Made by a program: the position numbers and the translations under genes
The notes under the pieces: model-generated
Seen by the model: the letters and a program-made list of their open reading frames with translations, nothing else
What the model was told of the DNA's origin: nothing
The model's database searches: none
In this document: piece by piece, positions 2,096 to 50,158 of the stretch
How positions within the stretch are numbered: the stretch's first letter is position 1
How the letters are laid out: every line of letters starts with the position of its first letter
Origin: Escherichia coli
GTDB taxonomy: Bacteria > Pseudomonadota > Gammaproteobacteria > Enterobacterales > Enterobacteriaceae
Length of the DNA stretch: 64,000 nt
Reading direction: 5' to 3' (one strand)
Assembly (NCBI RefSeq): GCF_016903815.1
Contig: NZ_CP069973.1

Positions 2096-3408
<1,313 letters not shown>

Positions 3409-3529: not shown

Positions 3530-5023
3530 ATGGACGCCATGAAATATAACGATTTACGCGACTTCTTGACGCTGCTTGAACAGCAGGGTGAGCTAAAACG
3601 TATCACGCTCCCGGTGGATCCGCATCTGGAAATCACTGAAATTGCTGACCGTACTTTGCGTGCCGGTGGGCCTGCGCTGTTGTTCGAAAACCCTAAAGGC
3701 TACTCAATGCCGGTGCTGTGCAACCTGTTCGGTACGCCAAAGCGCGTGGCGATGGGCATGGGGCAGGAAGATGTTTCGGCGCTGCGTGAAGTTGGTAAAT
3801 TATTGGCGTTTCTGAAAGAGCCGGAGCCGCCAAAAGGTTTCCGCGACCTGTTTGATAAACTGCCGCAGTTTAAGCAAGTATTGAACATGCCGACAAAGCG
3901 ACTGCGTGGTGCGCCGTGTCAGCAAAAAATTATCTCCGGCGATGACGTCGATCTTCACCGTATCCCCATTATGACCTGCTGGCCGGAAGACGCCGCGCCG
4001 CTGATTACCTGGGGGTTGACCGTGACGCGCGGCCCGCATAAAGAGCGGCAGAATCTGGGCATTTATCGCCAGCAGCTGATTGGTAAAAACAAATTGATTA
4101 TGCGCTGGCTGTCGCATCGCGGCGGCGCGCTGGATTTCCAGGAGTGGTGTGCGGCGCATCCGGGCGAACGTTTCCCGGTTTCTGTGGCGCTGGGTGCTGA
4201 TCCCGCCACAATTCTCGGTGCAGTCACCCCCGTTCCAGATACGCTTTCAGAGTATGCGTTTGCCGGATTGCTGCGCGGCACCAAGACCGAAGTGGTGAAG
4301 TGTATCTCCAATGACCTTGAAGTGCCCGCCAGTGCGGAGATAGTGCTGGAAGGGTATATCGAACAAGGCGAAACTGCGCCGGAAGGGCCGTATGGCGACC
4401 ACACCGGTTACTATAACGAAGTCGATAGTTTCCCGGTATTTACTGTGACGCATATTACCCAGCGTGAAGATGCGATTTATCATTCCACCTATACCGGGCG
4501 TCCGCCGGATGAACCTGCGGTGCTGGGTGTCGCACTGAACGAAGTGTTTGTGCCGATTCTGCAAAAACAGTTCCCGGAAATTGTCGATTTTTACCTGCCG
4601 CCGGAAGGCTGCTCTTATCGCCTGGCGGTAGTGACGATCAAAAAACAGTACGCCGGACACGCGAAGCGCGTCATGATGGGCGTCTGGTCGTTCTTACGCC
4701 AGTTTATGTACACTAAATTTGTGATCGTTTGCGATGATGACGTCAACGCACGCGACTGGAACGATGTGATTTGGGCGATTACCACCCGTATGGACCCGGC
4801 GCGGGACACGGTGTTGGTCGAAAATACGCCTATTGATTATCTGGATTTTGCCTCGCCTGTGTCCGGGCTGGGTTCAAAAATGGGGCTGGATGCCACGAAT
4901 AAATGGCCAGGGGAAACCCAGCGTGAATGGGGACGTCCCATCAAAAAAGATCCGGATGTTGTCGCGCATATTGACGCCATCTGGGATGAACTGGCTATTT
5001 TTAACAACGGTAAAAGCGCCTGA
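3530..5023 (+). CDS. ubiD: 3-octaprenyl-4-hydroxybenzoate decarboxylase UbiD (497 aa)
   Basis: Translation [41 protein letters not shown]... matches UbiD. Confidence 0.95.
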
Positions 5024-13874: not shown

Positions 13875-15416
<1,542 letters not shown>

Positions 15417-15484
15417 CCTTAAAGAACTGTGCTTTGCAGTGCTCACACAGATTGTCTGATGAAAATGAGCAGTAAAACCTCTAC

Positions 15485-15561
<77 letters not shown>

Positions 15562-15603
15562 AATTTGCACCGCAAATTTGAAGAGGTTTTAACTACATGT
15601 TAT

Positions 15604-15679
15604 GGGGCTATAGCTCAGCTGGGAGAGCGCCTGCTTTGCACGCAGGAGGTCTGCGGTTCGATCCCGCATAGCTCCACCA
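15604..15679 (+). tRNA. alaT: tRNA-Ala (anticodon TGC) in the 16S-23S spacer
   Basis: GGGGCTATAGCTCAGCTGGGAGAGCGCCTGCTTTGCACGCAGGAGGTCTGCGGTTCGATCCCGCATAGCTCCACCA. Confidence 0.97.
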
Positions 15680-15862
15680 TCTCTGTAGTGATTAAATAAA
15701 AAATACTTCAGAGTGTACCTGCAAAGGTTCACTGCGAAGTTTTGCTCTTTAAAAATCTGGATCAAGCTGAAAATTGAAACACTGAACAATGAAAGTTGTT
15801 CGTGAGTCTCTCAAATTTTCGCAACACGATGATGAATCGAAAGAAACATCTTCGGGTTGTGA

Positions 15863-18767
<2,905 letters not shown>

Positions 18768-18859
18768 ACAACGCCGAAGGTGTTTTGGCGGATGAGAGAA
18801 GATTTTCAGCCTGATACAGATTAAATCAGAACGCAGAAGCGGTCTGATGAAACAGAATT

Positions 18860-18979
18860 TGCCTGGCGGCCTTAGCGCGGTGGTCCCACCTGACCCCATG
18901 CCGAACTCAGAAGTGAAACGCCGTAGCGCCGATGGTAGTGTGGGGTCTCCCCATGCGAGAGTAGGGAACTGCCAGGCAT
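18860..18979 (+). rRNA. rrfA: 5S ribosomal RNA, 120 nt
   Basis: TGCCTGGCGGC...GGGAACTGCCAGGCAT, the canonical E. coli 5S ends. Confidence 0.95.
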
Positions 18980-23700: not shown

Positions 23701-24413
23701 GTGCACAGAAAACCCCCAGCTAGGCTGGGGGTTCCGGAAAGCTTTCAGCTTTAAGCCAGTTATTAAAACCCCTTTTGATTTGTTAAAACACCTTGCGGTC
23801 TGGCAACTGCAAGTGTCAAACAAGAAATCAAAAGGGGGTCCCAATGGGGAACGAAAAGAGCTTAGCGCACACCCGATGGAACTGTAAATATCACATAGTT
23901 TTTGCGCCAAAATACCGAAGACAGGTGTTCTACAGAGAGAAGCGTAGAGCAATAGGCAGTATTTTGAGAAAGCTGTGTGAGTGGAAAAGTGTACGGATTC
24001 TGGAAGCTGAATGCTGTGCAGATCATATCCATATGCTTGTGGAGATCCCGCCCAAAATGAGCGTATCCGGCTTTATGGGATATCTGAAAGGGAAAAGCAG
24101 TCTGATGCTTTACGAGCAGTTTGGTGATTTGAAATTCAAATACAGGAACAGGGAGTTCTGGTGCAGAGGGTACTACGTCGATACGGTGGGTAAGAACACG
24201 GCGAAGATACAGGATTACATAAAGCACCAGCTTGAAGAGGATAAAATGGGAGAGCAGTTATCGATTCCCTATCCGGGCAGCCCGTTTACGGGCCGTAAGT
24301 AACGAAGTTGGATGCAAATGTCAGATCGTGTGCGCCTGTTAGGGCGCGGCTGGTAAGAGAGCCTTATAGGCGCATTTGAAAAACCTCCGGCTATGCCGGA
24401 GGATATTTATTTA
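23701..24413 (+). mobile_element. IS200-like element (IS200/IS605 family), copy A, about 0.71 kb
   Basis: Bounded by sequence identity to copy B (40452..41163). Left-end hairpin cccccagc-tag-gctggggg, a second structured region sequestering the tnpA RBS, and a right-end hairpin cctccggc-tat-gccggagg. The left boundary is uncertain by a few nt inside the T-run. Confidence 0.85.
23844..24302 (+). CDS. tnpA: IS200-type HUH (Y1) transposase TnpA (152 aa)
   Basis: Translation MGNEKSLAHTRWNCKYHIVFAPKYRRQVFYREKRRAIGSILRKLCEWKSVRILEAECCADHIHMLVEIPPKMSVSGFMGYLKG... with the HxH (HIHML) motif; closely matches recalled IS200/IS1541 TnpA. Confidence 0.9.
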   Translation: MGNEKSLAHTRWNCKYHIVFAPKYRRQVFYREKRRAIGSILRKLCEWKSVRILEAECCADHIHMLVEIPPKMSVSGFMGYLKGKSSLMLYEQFGDLKFKYRNREFWCRGYYVDTVGKNTAKIQDYIKHQLEEDKMGEQLSIPYPGSPFTGRK

Positions 24414-30073: not shown

Positions 30074-30220
30074 GATTCGCCTGAACATGCCCTTTTTTCG
30101 TAAGTAAGCAACATAAGCTGTCACGTTTTGTGATGGCTATTAGAAATTCCTATGCAACAACTGAAAAAAAATTACAAAAAGTGCTTTCTGAACTGAACAA
30201 AAAAGAGTAAAGTTAGTCGC

Positions 30221-30329
30221 GTAGGGTACAGAGGTAAGATGTTCTATCTTTCAGACCTTTTACTTCACGTAATCGGATTTGGCTGAATATTTTAGCCGCC
30301 CCAGTCAGTAATGACTGGGGCGTTTTTTA
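30221..30329 (+). ncRNA. spf: Spot 42 small RNA (spf), 109 nt
   Basis: GTAGGGTACAGAGGTAAGATGTTCTATCTTTCAGACCTTTTACTTCACGTAATCGGATTTGGCTGAATATTTTAGCCGCCCCAGTCAGTAATGACTGGGGCGTTTTTTA matches recalled Spot 42, including its terminator. Confidence 0.88.
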
Positions 30330-30454: not shown

Positions 30455-31087
30455 TCATTCGCCGTCCTGCGTTTCTTCTACAGGCTGCATCTCGCTAAAC
30501 CAGGTATCCAGTTTCTGCCGCAGCTTGTCCACGCCTTGTTTCTTCAACGAAGAAAACGTTTCAACCTGCACATCACCGTTAAACGCCAGCACCGCTTCAC
30601 GCACCATATTCAATTGCGCTTTACGTGCGCCGCTTGCCAGTTTGTCCGCTTTGGTCAGCAGCACCAGCACGGCGATATTGCTGTCTACCGCCCACTCAAT
30701 CATCTGCTGATCCAAATCTTTCAGCGGATGGCGAATATCCATTAGCACCACCAGACCTTGCAGGCTCTGACGTTTTTCGAGGTATTCGCCGAGCGCGCGT
30801 TGCCATTTGCGCTTCATCTCTTCCGGGACTTCCGCGTAGCCATAGCCGGGCAGGTCAACCAGACGCTTGCCGTCAGCCACTTCAAACAGGTTGATAAGCT
30901 GGGTGCGCCCTGGGGTTTTTGAGGTACGAGCCAGGCTTTTCTGGTTAGTCAGCGTGTTCAGCGCGCTGGATTTACCTGCGTTGGAACGGCCTGCAAAAGC
31001 CACTTCAATTCCGGTATCGGAAGGTAGGTGGCGAATATCAGGCGCACTCATCACAAAATGCGTCTGTTGATAATTCAAATTAGTCAA
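30455..31087 (-). CDS. engB: Ribosome biogenesis GTPase EngB/YihA (210 aa)
   Basis: Translation [46 protein letters not shown]... with G1-G4 GTPase motifs. Confidence 0.93.
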
Positions 31088-31357
31088 AGCGGTCGTCTCC
31101 GTCAGTCAAAGCTTTGCGGCGATTATACCTGAACCATAATAAAAGGCGGATTTTTCGGCGTGAGCGTTGTAAGTAAAAGCCATACGCTTTGTGAGACATT
31201 GCCGATAGTCTTTATGCGAAATAGCAGAGAAAATTCTGCGATGCATGTCAAATAAGCTATATAAATCAGTTAATTGCTTTTATATAAAACTCTGAAAATG
31301 TGCAAATACTGATGGCGGTTGATTGTTTGTTTAAAGCAAAGGCGTAAAGTAGCACCC

Positions 31358-31600
31358 ATAGAGCGAGGACGCTAACAGGAACAATGACTCAGGATGAGGG
31401 TCAGGAGCGCCAGGAGGCGAAGACAGAGGATTGTCAGGAAGACAAACGTCCGGAGACGTAATTAAACGGAAATGGAATCAACACGGATTGTTCCGGCTAA
31501 TGGAAAAACAGGGTGTGTTGGCGGCCTGCAAGGATTGTAAGACCCGTTAAGGGTTATGAGTCAGGAAAAAAGGCGACAGAGTAATCTGTCGCCTTTTTTC
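31358..31600 (+). ncRNA. csrC: CsrC small RNA (CsrA-sequestering)
   Basis: It lies in the engB-yihI intergenic region where csrC maps in K-12, has at least a dozen GGA-containing motifs (AGGAC, CAGGAAC, CAGGATG, CAGGAGC, CAGGAGG, GAGGATT, CAGGAAG ...) and ends in the terminator aaggcgacagagtaatctgtcgccttttttc. The 5' end is approximate. Confidence 0.65.
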
Positions 31601-31668
31601 TTTGCTTGCTTTCTGTTAGATTCCGCCGCAAATCTATACTGAATAAAACGGCTAAAAGACGAACCATT

Positions 31669-32178
31669 ATGAAACCATCATCTTCAAACTCACGCAGCAA
31701 AGGTCATGCAAAAGCGCGTCGAAAAACACGCGAGGAGCTGGATCAGGAAGCTCGTGACCGTAAGCGTCAGAAAAAACGTCGTGGTCATGCGCCGGGCAGC
31801 CGCGCAGCGGGCGGTAACACCACGTCAGGCAGCAAAGGCCAGAACGCACCGAAAGATCCACGTATTGGCAGTAAAACCCCTATTCCATTGGGCGTGACTG
31901 AAAAAGTCACCAAACAGCACAAACCGAAGAGTGAGAAACCTATGCTTTCACCGCAGGCGGAGTTGGAGTTACTGGAAACGGATGAGCGTCTGGATGCGCT
32001 GCTGGAACGTCTGGAGGCAGGCGAAACCCTGAGCGCCGAAGAGCAATCCTGGGTGGATGCCAAACTGGATCGTATTGATGAGTTGATGCAGAAACTCGGC
32101 CTCTCTTATGACGATGACGAAGAAGAGGAAGAAGACGAGAAGCAAGAAGACATGATGCGTCTGCTGCGGGGCAACTAA
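31669..32178 (+). CDS. yihI: Der GTPase-activating protein YihI (169 aa)
   Basis: Track ORF 31606..32178; the internal ATG at 31669 gives [40 protein letters not shown]..., highly basic at the N-terminus and acidic at the C-terminus. Confidence 0.9.
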
Positions 32179-38344: not shown

Positions 38345-38430
38345 TCGTGCAAAAGGGCTGCACCATGATGTGAATGTTGCACCAATATAGTGCTTCAATG
38401 GAAACATTAAGCACCATATTGGTGCAATGA
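38345..38430. promoter_or_regulatory. NtrC enhancer sites upstream of glnA (TGCACCA-N-TGGTGCA palindromes)
   Basis: Near-perfect palindrome gcaccatattggtgc at 38411-38425 plus related half-sites tgcaccaatatagtgc and tgcaccatgatg upstream. Confidence 0.75.
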
Positions 38431-38577
38431 CCTTTGGATAACCCTTTTTATGCTCCGTGAAAGCAATCACAAAGGGACTCTGCAATACTTGTTTGCGGAG
38501 GATGTTTGTGATCCTGTTTTGTAGTGCGATTAATCCGTGTACAATAACGCGCTATTTCTAATGCCTGAGGCAAAGTT

Positions 38578-40451: not shown

Positions 40452-41163
40452 GTGCACAGAAAACCCCCAGCTAGGCTGGGGGTTCCGGAAAGCTTTCAGC
40501 TTTGAGCCAGTTATTAAAACCCCTTTTGATTTGTTAAAACACCTTGCGGTCTGGCAACTGCAAGTGTCAAACAAGAAATCAAAAGGGGGTCCCAATGGGG
40601 AACGAAAAGAGCTTAGCGCACACCCGATGGAACTGTAAATATCACATAGTTTTTGCGCCAAAATACCGAAGACAGGTGTTCTACAGAGAGAAGCGTAGAG
40701 CAATAGGCAGTATTTTGAGAAAGCTGTGTGAGTGGAAAAGCGTACGGATTCTGGAAGCTGAATGCTGTGCAGATCATATCCATATGCTTGTGGAGATCCC
40801 GCCCAAAATGAGCGTATCCGGGTTTATGGGATATCTGAAAGGGAAAAGCAGTCTGATGCTTTACGAGCAGTTTGGTGATTTGAAATTCAAATACAGGAAC
40901 AGGGAGTTCTGGTGCAGAGGGTACTACGTCGATACAGTGGGTAAGAACACGGCGAAGATACAGGATTACATAAAGCACCAGCTTGAAGAGGATAAAATGG
41001 GAGAGCAGTTATCGATTCCCTATCCGGGCAGCCCGTTTACGGGCCGTAAGTAACGAAGTTGGATGCAAATGTCAGATCGTGTGCGCCTGTTAGGGCGCGG
41101 CTGGTAAGAGAGCCTTATAGGCGCATTTGAAAAACCTCCGGCTATGCCGGAGGATATTTATTA
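40452..41163 (+). mobile_element. IS200-like element, copy B, same orientation as copy A
   Basis: Near-identical to 23701..24413 (only a few substitutions seen); the same terminal hairpins are present. Confidence 0.85.
40595..41053 (+). CDS. tnpA: IS200-type HUH (Y1) transposase TnpA (152 aa)
   Basis: Track ORF 40544..41053; the internal ATG gives MGNEKSLAHTRWNCKYHIVF..., with an amino-acid sequence identical to copy A. Confidence 0.9.
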   Translation: MGNEKSLAHTRWNCKYHIVFAPKYRRQVFYREKRRAIGSILRKLCEWKSVRILEAECCADHIHMLVEIPPKMSVSGFMGYLKGKSSLMLYEQFGDLKFKYRNREFWCRGYYVDTVGKNTAKIQDYIKHQLEEDKMGEQLSIPYPGSPFTGRK

Positions 41164-48121: not shown

Positions 48122-50158
48122 TTAGATGCTTTTTAACGACGCGAACAGTGCCGCCCATTCGCTATCGGCGCGATAAAAGACCGGCGGCTTGCCGATGGGC
48201 GCATTAACGGTCACTTCCCCGCCCCGGAATGCTTCACCCGTCCAGGCATGGACCCAGTTATCCTCCGGCAGATAGAGCGTCCAGTCGCTACGGCCTTCTT
48301 CATGCACCGGAGCGACCAGAATGTCGCGGCCTAACAGGTACTGATATTTCAGGGTGTAGGTCTGCGCGTCGTCTTCGTAATGCAGGAACAGCGGGCGCAT
48401 GACCGGCAGACCGGACTTCGCATTCAGCGCGACGGCCTCTTTCAGATAAGGTTTCAGGGTGGTGAAGACGGTGGTCATACGGGCGAAATGGGCGATGGTT
48501 TCCGCGTCGCCGTCAAACTGCCAGTTGTCGCCAGGACGGTTACCTTCGTGGGTGCGCATCATCGGCGTGAAGGCGCTGAAATCGCACCAGCGCAGCAGCA
48601 GCTCTTTGCTGCGCTTCATCTCAAACAGGGTGGTGTAACCGCCAATGTCGCTGTGATGCAGGCCATGTCCGGTCATTGCCAGCGACAGCGCCGCCGGGAC
48701 AACCGACGCCAGGCCATCGTCGAGACTCCAGTCGACGTTCTGGTCGCCCGCCCACATCATGGTGGAGTATTTCTGGCTACCGGTAGAACCGGCGCGCATA
48801 AAGAAGAGGATCTCGCCGAGCTTGCCCGTTTCTTCAAGGGCTTCGTAGTTACATTTCGCCCACAGCGCAGGCCAGGCGTTATGCATAATTTCCGCGCTGA
48901 CGCCGTTATGCAGGTACGTGTCGGTGGGCAGATACTCGCCGAAGTCAGCCATCCAGCCGCCGCAGCCAAGTTCAATCATGTTCTTTTTGATCACTTCCTT
49001 GAACCAGGCGTAGGCTTCTGGATTGGTGAGGTCGACAACGCCGCCATAGAACTCGCCAAACTCCACCAGATAGTCGCCGCCAGAGGCATCTTTTGCCAGA
49101 TAACCGCGCTTTGCCGCCTCTTCGCAGAGATCTTTATCGCTGGCTACATACGGGTTGATATAGGCCAGGAACTGCACGCCCTCTTTGTTCCACTGCTTAA
49201 TACGTGAGTCCAGTTGCGGATAGTTTTCGCTGTTCCACTTCCAGTTCCACATTACGCGTTTGCCAAAAGAGGTCATACGGATCCCGGACCAGTCCTGCGC
49301 CCAGATGCCGTTAACCTTCACACCCGCGTTACGCATGGTGTCCAGTTTCTTCTGACACACTTCCGTCCCGCCCTGAATGCCGAGCGTTACCCCGTCATAA
49401 ATCCAGTCGGGCAGTTCTGGCTGGCGTCCCAGCAGGGCAGTTAATTTTTCCAGCAGGGAGATGTATGTATCAGCACATTCAAAACGCAGCGTTGCTTTGT
49501 CTTCCCACAGCGCCAGTTCATGGTATTCCGGGGCGCTAAAGTCGAAGTTCATGTAGCAACTGTTATCAACATGGCAGTAATACTTCTGCGTGCTGACAAA
49601 CGTAGGCTGTGGGAAGAAAGTCCAGTAATAGTCGCCGCCCGCGTTCTCTTTGCAGTCGGCCTGCCAGGTGACATAGGTTTGCTTGTTGCGACCAACGCCT
49701 TGTTCACTGGTCCATAGCGGGAACGGTTTGCCGCGCAGATCGAAGTAGGAAAACTGTTCGCCGCAGCCGTAGATATGGTCCTCTGGTTGAGCGGCAAGGC
49801 GCAGCCAGATGCGGTTGTGGTTAAGGTTGTCGTTTTGTAGTTCCAGCAATAAACGGCCCTGATCGTCGGCAGAGATATTCAGCGTGGCGCTAATGTCAGA
49901 ACCACGGCTGAAATGGATTAACCAACCATCCGGTGACTGGCTGACGATGGCGTCGGTAAGCGCAATTTTCTCCTGTAGTTTATCTTTAATGCTGAAATTG
50001 CCGCGGAACATATCGATATCCGCAATACCTGAACCAATCCATAAACAAGGATTATCTTTGCTATGGGTTAAAATAAGACGCTGTTGAAAATGTAGGGTAA
50101 AACAGTCGTTATTCTGATGAAACTGAAAATCTGGTAATTGTGGGCGTGGCGTATCCAT
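48122..50158 (-). CDS. yihQ: Sulfoquinovosidase YihQ (GH31), 678 aa
   Basis: Translation MDTPRPQLPDFQFHQNNDCFTLHFQQRLILTHSKDNPCLWIGSG... matches YihQ. Confidence 0.95.
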   Translation of the reverse strand: MDTPRPQLPDFQFHQNNDCFTLHFQQRLILTHSKDNPCLWIGSGIADIDMFRGNFSIKDKLQEKIALTDAIVSQSPDGWLIHFSRGSDISATLNISADDQGRLLLELQNDNLNHNRIWLRLAAQPEDHIYGCGEQFSYFDLRGKPFPLWTSEQGVGRNKQTYVTWQADCKENAGGDYYWTFFPQPTFVSTQKYYCHVDNSCYMNFDFSAPEYHELALWEDKATLRFECADTYISLLEKLTALLGRQPELPDWIYDGVTLGIQGGTEVCQKKLDTMRNAGVKVNGIWAQDWSGIRMTSFGKRVMWNWKWNSENYPQLDSRIKQWNKEGVQFLAYINPYVASDKDLCEEAAKRGYLAKDASGGDYLVEFGEFYGGVVDLTNPEAYAWFKEVIKKNMIELGCGGWMADFGEYLPTDTYLHNGVSAEIMHNAWPALWAKCNYEALEETGKLGEILFFMRAGSTGSQKYSTMMWAGDQNVDWSLDDGLASVVPAALSLAMTGHGLHHSDIGGYTTLFEMKRSKELLLRWCDFSAFTPMMRTHEGNRPGDNWQFDGDAETIAHFARMTTVFTTLKPYLKEAVALNAKSGLPVMRPLFLHYEDDAQTYTLKYQYLLGRDILVAPVHEEGRSDWTLYLPEDNWVHAWTGEAFRGGEVTVNAPIGKPPVFYRADSEWAALFASLKSI

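Follow-up and report, generated by a model that had tools for sequence, protein, structure and literature searches.

The csrC locus between yihA and yihI in an Escherichia coli chromosome: identity, conservation and predicted fold

The yihA-csrC-yihI locus

The 64-kb stretch of DNA analysed here (the window) carries yihA (engB; 30455..31087, minus strand), an ORF for the ribosome biogenesis GTPase, and yihI (31669..32178, plus strand), which encodes the Der GTPase-activating protein and is followed by hemN. Both flanks had been named in the original prediction, and the protein-family models agree: yihA matches TIGR03598 (252 bits, cut-off 124), and yihI, whose start codon was set by alignment to K-12 b3866, matches NF003560 (169 bits, cut-off 90). 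The intergenic gap between them measures 581 bp (31088..31668) and not the 500 bp of noncoding DNA first given for it. Within this gap, the plus-strand segment 31358..31603 is almost certainly the csrC gene of an E. coli chromosome other than K-12, judged by its match to Rfam RF00084, its orthology to K-12 b4457 and its fold. The gene, for the 246-nt CsrC small RNA, has yihA as its divergent upstream neighbour and is co-oriented with yihI, the start codon of which lies 65 nt beyond the csrC 3' end.

Two comparisons carry the identification. A covariance-model scan of the whole 64-kb window with Rfam 15 gives a match to the CsrC model RF00084 at 277.9 bits (gathering score 61; E = 1.2e-87), in which model positions 1-255 of 255 fall on 31358..31611; the match is full-length and untruncated, and CsrC is the best-scoring member of its Rfam clan at this place. 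In the second comparison, the segment aligns with the annotated csrC of K-12 MG1655 (b4457, an annotated ncRNA at NC_000913.3 4051036..4051281, between yihA b3865 and yihI b3866) with 245 of 246 positions identical (99.6%) and with the same 5' and 3' ends. Alignment to K-12 csrC and a search with the Rfam CsrC model were the checks proposed along with the initial call of a CsrC-like small RNA in the engB-yihI intergenic region, and the call passed both. Of the extent then proposed, 31358-31600, the start is exactly the K-12 csrC 5' end, but the equivalent of the annotated 3' end lies at 31603; the Rfam model runs 3' past this end, to 31611. Nothing in the evidence contradicts the identification as csrC.

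Compared with the K-12 CsrC of Weilbacher et al. (2003; as cited in PMC7652899), the window holds the same gene with the same ends, neighbours, UvrY site, terminator and all 14 GGA motifs. The whole yihA-yihI spacer differs from that of MG1655 at 3 of 593 positions, and one of these falls inside the 246-nt csrC. This sole difference, T31501 in the window for A in K-12, changes AAGGA to ATGGA with the GGA kept, and from the sequence the substitution looks neutral. Other genera and species have G or A at position 31501.

Of 5426 complete E. coli genomes, 5425 contain a csrC copy that spans 80% or more of the query, and in 5359 of them the identity is at least 99%. The allele of the window is common: about a quarter of a spread E. 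coli sample, O157:H7 strains included, is 100% identical, and identical copies occur in many E. coli lineages. The csrC of the window is an ordinary copy of an already known gene. With CsrC characterised as early as 2003 and a single base separating this copy from the K-12 reference, the locus carries little weight as a discovery; the check shows that a known small RNA, its exact boundaries included, is recognisable from raw sequence by a first-stage model reader. Among the 5426 genomes, one is without a match, and about 64 extra places mean that some genomes have two csrC copies. In NZ_CP148581.1, a record labelled E. coli, csrC is only 87% identical, a divergence that suggests a misassigned species label.

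Homologs in other species were collected by searching one genome per species with the 20-base pattern AGCGCCAGGAGGCGAANNNNNAGGA, which returned 58 loci. Three matches (in Herbidospora, Victivallales and Kuenenia, of unrelated phyla) have neither yihA nor yihI and were discarded as chance. The other 55 are enterobacterial (Enterobacteriaceae), all 55 homolog sequences are distinct, and they come from Citrobacter, Enterobacter, Salmonella, Leclercia, Lelliottia, Pluralibacter, Yokenella, Superficieibacter, Silvania, Pseudocitrobacter, Huaxiibacter and Escherichia. The gene order yihA (minus), csrC, yihI (plus) is found in 52 of the 52 homolog loci that reach far enough upstream.

Some database records place csrC where it would not be expected from their titles. 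An enterobacterial yihA-csrC-yihI locus stands on the contig CACSKA010000012.1, whose title is Chryseobacterium sp. 18061, a sign of contamination or of a mislabelled record. A plasmid-borne or mobile csrC was also considered and rejected, as the hits are either mislabelled chromosomes or records with the polA-to-glnG chromosomal block. Some of the records called plasmids are 4.8-5.4 Mb long and really chromosomes, some are intermediate at 0.4-1.0 Mb, and three Salmonella records measure 148-194 kb; the one inspected, NZ_LN868945.1, contains the whole block of polA, yihA, csrC, yihI and hemN to glnG. These records are mislabelled, or are excised or misassembled chromosome segments.

Coding potential and protein annotation over csrC

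The same stretch may be read as coding, with csrC also, or instead, encoding a small protein in the manner of the dual-function RNA Spot 42 with SpfP. We regard this as highly improbable, in spite of several observations in its favor. Two ORFs lie inside csrC, an acidic 25-aa ORF with an ATG start (MTQDEGQERQEAKTEDCQEDKRPET; 31384..31461, plus strand) that has AGGA 3 nt upstream of its start, and a 39-aa ORF with a TTG start (31431..31550, plus strand). Ribosome-profiling peaks have been reported over CsrC ORFs, two of which were predicted to be coding (Friedman et al. 2017, PMC5521070), and current annotation gives the nearby Spot 42 a small protein, SpfP. In most E. coli genomes RefSeq (PGAP) has no ncRNA at csrC but a "hypothetical protein" pseudogene, and in Salmonella a 74-aa hypothetical protein (WP_001541209.1).

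Conservation speaks against the coding reading. Of the 55 species, 5 retain the start codon of the 25-aa ORF and 2 have the whole ORF intact; an intact 39-aa ORF is found in 5, of which three belong to Escherichia. Peptide conservation is only apparent, as it follows the nearly invariant nucleotides of the GGA hairpins with no pattern of synonymous change, and neither ORF has an NCBIfam family match. The Salmonella ORF has its start outside the RNA, about 30 nt upstream of the CsrC 5' end, and CsrC therefore could not express it, while the E. coli RefSeq protein call is itself flagged "frameshifted; internal stop". The AGGA before the 25-aa ATG is a CsrA site and would probably be occluded, and CsrA-protected fragments could mimic ribosome footprints. 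With internal ORFs that are not conserved and RefSeq calls that are broken or start upstream of the RNA, the coding reading of csrC was rejected.

A narrower form of this idea concerns Escherichia, the only genus among the sampled species in which the ATG and the in-frame stop of the 25-aa ORF occur together. There is a very slim chance that CsrC of Escherichia acts as a dual-function RNA from which the ORF at 31384..31461 is translated. If this were so, its translation would report the level of free CsrA, because the Shine-Dalgarno-like AGGA is a CsrA site. The pattern of conservation argues against an old peptide function; a young, genus-specific peptide would be what is left, and we give it hardly any credence.

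The protein annotation has a simpler explanation. The E. coli pseudogene call was probably seeded by the 74-aa Salmonella ORF, and the protein annotation over csrC is probably a spurious family that spreads via automated annotation. The overlap falls at 31384..31550 in the window, at 2527..2693 in locus L001 and at 3966..4190 in the sequence from NZ_LN868945.1. An annotation gap at csrC is thereby documented, and it could mislead automated pipelines.

Promoter, terminator and fold

Upstream of csrC, at 31190..31207 (plus strand; -168..-151 from the csrC 5' end), lies the imperfect 18-nt inverted repeat TGTGAGACATTGCCGATA, the site for UvrY of the BarA-UvrY system. Its sequence is identical to the UvrY site that Zere et al. 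(2015, PMC4682653) mapped at E. coli csrC with ChIP-exo and DNase I footprints. A TGTAAG half-site (31168..31173, plus strand) precedes the repeat, and both its position and its gap of 16 bp match the half-site described for csrC (PMC4682653). At the level of sequence, these elements are consistent with BarA-UvrY-dependent transcription of csrC. Of 52 species, 32 have the exact half-site TGTGAGA at -168..-153; in the other 20, two Salmonella subspecies included, it is absent as an exact match, which is all that this count registers.

The core promoter is placed at 31323..31350 (plus strand) by sequence reading and species comparison. A candidate -10 box, TAAAGT (31345..31350), ends 8 nt before the csrC 5' end, and a 16-nt spacer separates it from a weak -35-like TTGTTT (31323..31328). 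In the 52 species inspected, GTAAAGT is found at the same upstream distance (four species have GTAGAGT instead, and one has GTACAGT); a CTTGT or TTGT box likewise keeps its distance. A sigma-70 consensus scan of 31000..31750 returned 0 promoter-like sites. The boxes were found only by comparison across species, and TAAAGT and TTGTTT are taken as the probable weak -10 and -35 of csrC. A missed call in the scan is expected for a weak, activator-dependent promoter, and the weak core fits activator dependence.

At the other end of the gene, both a terminator scan and the Rfam structure place an intrinsic terminator with a 16-bp hairpin at 31565..31600 (plus strand). The terminator scan calls its GC-rich core, ggcgacagagtaatctgtcgcc with a GTAA loop, at 31572..31593, and the 3' arm runs into T6 (31594..31599) and then CTTT to 31603, in agreement with the strong terminator plus T6 originally described. 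We aligned the window sequence and the 55 homologs with MAFFT (56 sequences); in this alignment the terminator has 99.2% of its cells paired, with 12 of the 16 pairs unchanged throughout.

This terminator bears directly on another reading, in which the stretch is mainly a long structured leader of yihI that is read through the terminator, and not an independent RNA. Its appeal comes from csrC and yihI being on the same strand with the 65-nt interval between them, and from the empty sigma-70 scan of 31000..31750, by which no promoter is called between the terminator and yihI. The negative scan carries little weight because the csrC promoter was missed too. A 16-bp hairpin with T6, so little changed in 56 sequences, is difficult to reconcile with a leader, and K-12 csrC is annotated as a separate ncRNA with its end at the equivalent of 31603. 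These observations leave the leader reading an even smaller chance than the small protein. Minor read-through into yihI is possible and is compatible with csrC as an independent small RNA.

The minimum free energy of csrC is -87.7 kcal/mol (z = -6.98 against shuffles). The helices are laid out by projecting the Rfam consensus structure onto the window. In this structure the 5' domain (31362..31459, plus strand) consists of five short hairpins with GGA loops (31362..31373, 31385..31403, 31408..31419, 31422..31435 and 31446..31459) joined by GGA-bearing single-stranded linkers. The central and 3' region (31466..31538) begins with linker GGA at 31468 and 31474 and continues into a long imperfect helix (helix 6; 31479..31520), which holds the GGA at 31485 and 31502, and into a small hairpin (31528..31538) with the GGA at 31532 in its loop. 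A further small hairpin (31542..31554) precedes the terminator.

Across the alignment, 87% of the cells are paired under the Rfam structure, compared with 39-48% when the partners are slid by 1-3 columns, in a test whose consensus structure was itself derived from the CsrC family. Compensatory changes are found at 5 pairs, and the observed covariation score was reached in 0 of 500 shuffles. GC is replaced by AU in 23 sequences in helix 1, and UA by CG in 20 in helix 5. One pair of helix 6 goes from CG to AU in 19 species, yet this helix is only 66% paired in the MAFFT alignment, where helices 2 and 6 both stand at only about 65%. The covariation lends modest support to the structure, as the majority of stems hardly change and many pairs show no variation at all.

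GGA motifs and proposed sequestration of CsrA

The segment 31358..31603 contains 14 GGA on the plus strand and 2 on the minus strand; the first count was at least 12. The motifs listed at the outset are all at their places: GAGGAC at 31366, CAGGAAC at 31376, CAGGATG at 31390, CAGGAGC at 31402, CAGGAGG at 31411, GAGGATT at 31426, CAGGAAG at 31435, CCGGAGA at 31450 and ACGGAAATGGAA at 31466. No other 254-nt stretch on either strand of the 64-kb window is as dense, and the plus-strand mean is 3.55 GGA per stretch (sd 1.97); the next dense stretches have 12 (minus strand, inside a 678-aa ORF) and 11 (16S rRNA). Against dinucleotide shuffles of the segment, the 14 GGA compare with 8.9 +/- 2.0 expected (fraction reaching 14, 0.011), AGGA is found 9 times against 2.9 expected (fraction 0.0008), and CAGGA 6 times against 0.5, a count reached in 0 of 5000 shuffles. 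The GGA density exceeds chance.

A second CsrC-like locus in the window was ruled out, the other GGA-dense stretches being 16S rRNA and a coding ORF, and the Rfam scan found no member of the Csr clan in the window besides csrC. The second-densest stretch (about 49209..49462, minus strand; 12 GGA in 254 nt) lies within the 678-aa ORF at 48122..50158 (minus strand) and is therefore coding sequence and no Csr-type RNA.

In the 55 homologs the sense strand has 13-16 GGA and the antisense strand 0-2, and each homolog finishes with this same terminator. With a shift of up to 3 nt allowed, each of 13 of the 14 GGA sites of the window is retained by 54 or 55 of the 55 homologs; among these sites are those at 31367, 31378, 31392, 31404, 31413, 31428, 31437 and 31452. 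The remaining GGA, at the base of the terminator (31564), is retained by 36 of 55. The reading of the GGA density as a functionless by-product of composition, which draws on a purine-rich segment (158 of 254 bases are A or G) that would give some 8-9 GGA from composition alone because it is A+G-rich, is refuted by the excess of CAGGA and AGGA over the shuffles, the strand asymmetry of 14 to 2, the conservation of 13 of 14 sites in at least 54 of 55 species and the full-length RF00084 match.

On the Rfam consensus structure, 6 of the GGA motifs fall in hairpin loops, 5 in single-stranded linkers and 3 in partly or wholly paired positions. In the CsrA SELEX consensus, RUACARGGAUGU, the GGA is usually in the loop of a short hairpin (PMC7652899). 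On the projected structure, the arrangement in loops and linkers would be the expected one for CsrA ligands, and the GGA hairpins and linkers of the 5' domain are presumed to be high-affinity CsrA sites.

The way in which this RNA would act can be proposed by analogy with K-12. CsrC of K-12, like CsrB, has multiple high-affinity GGA sites that sequester CsrA dimers from mRNAs (PMC7652899), phosphorylated UvrY, from the BarA-UvrY system, activates csrC transcription (PMC7652899, PMC4682653), and RNase E, PNPase and CsrD are all required for CsrC decay, the trigger for which acts through EIIA-Glc when a preferred carbon source is present (PMC7652899). For the strain studied here, csrC would be transcribed from its weak promoter upon activation by phosphorylated UvrY at the repeat about 160 bp upstream, and transcription would stop at the strong intrinsic terminator to give a 246-nt untranslated RNA. 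This RNA would display about a dozen GGA, some in the loops of short hairpins and others in the single-stranded linkers that separate these. Each CsrA dimer would bind two GGA motifs, and one CsrC would therefore hold several dimers. Together with CsrB, it would draw CsrA off lower-affinity mRNA targets, until RNase E and PNPase, in a CsrD-dependent manner, removed CsrC when a preferred carbon source was available. Sequestration of CsrA, activation by UvrY and decay through CsrD and RNase E are ascribed to this strain from the 99.6% identity and the unchanged UvrY site; the 64-kb window itself contains none of the genes for CsrA, UvrY and CsrD.

A close relative in function is E. coli CsrB, which belongs to the same Rfam clan (CL00106) and shares the GGA hairpin loops and the sequestration of CsrA (PMC7652899), as well as the control by BarA-UvrY through a far-upstream inverted repeat and the turnover by CsrD and RNase E (PMC4682653, PMC7652899). 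CsrB differs in being a separate gene at a separate locus, with 22 GGA compared with the 14 in csrC of the window (PMC7652899). The csrB repeat is nearly perfect (TGTGAGAGATCTCTTACA) and IHF-dependent, whereas that of csrC is weaker, with no apparent IHF site (PMC4682653). In Pseudomonas RsmX/Y/Z and other RNAs of the CsrB family, hairpins with GGA loops likewise titrate CsrA or RsmA (PMC7652899), but these RNAs have no sequence similarity or gene order in common with the csrC locus. They are stable in species without CsrD (PMC7652899).

Several other RNAs were seen in the window. Spot 42 (spf; 30211..30329, plus strand; Rfam 122.8 bits) lies just upstream of yihA; the K-12 annotation now places SpfP inside it, and Zere et al. 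(2015, PMC4682653) display the spf region together with csrC in one figure panel of UvrY/SirA ChIP-exo data. Two matches to Rfam STnc490 (RF01405), of 146 bits each, occur at 23711..23834 and 40462..40585 (plus strand). The two 124-nt copies differ at one base, and each starts with a short palindrome, AACCCCCAGC...GCTGGGGGTT; the pair looks like a dispersed repeat and not a single-copy small RNA gene. The ES222 small RNA (RF02755) has a full-length match of 131 bits at 38389..38496 (plus strand). A complete rRNA operon spans 13875..18977 (plus strand), with 16S, spacer tRNAs at 15485 and 15604, 23S and 5S, and a StyR-44 match at 15747..15855 lies directly before its 23S gene.
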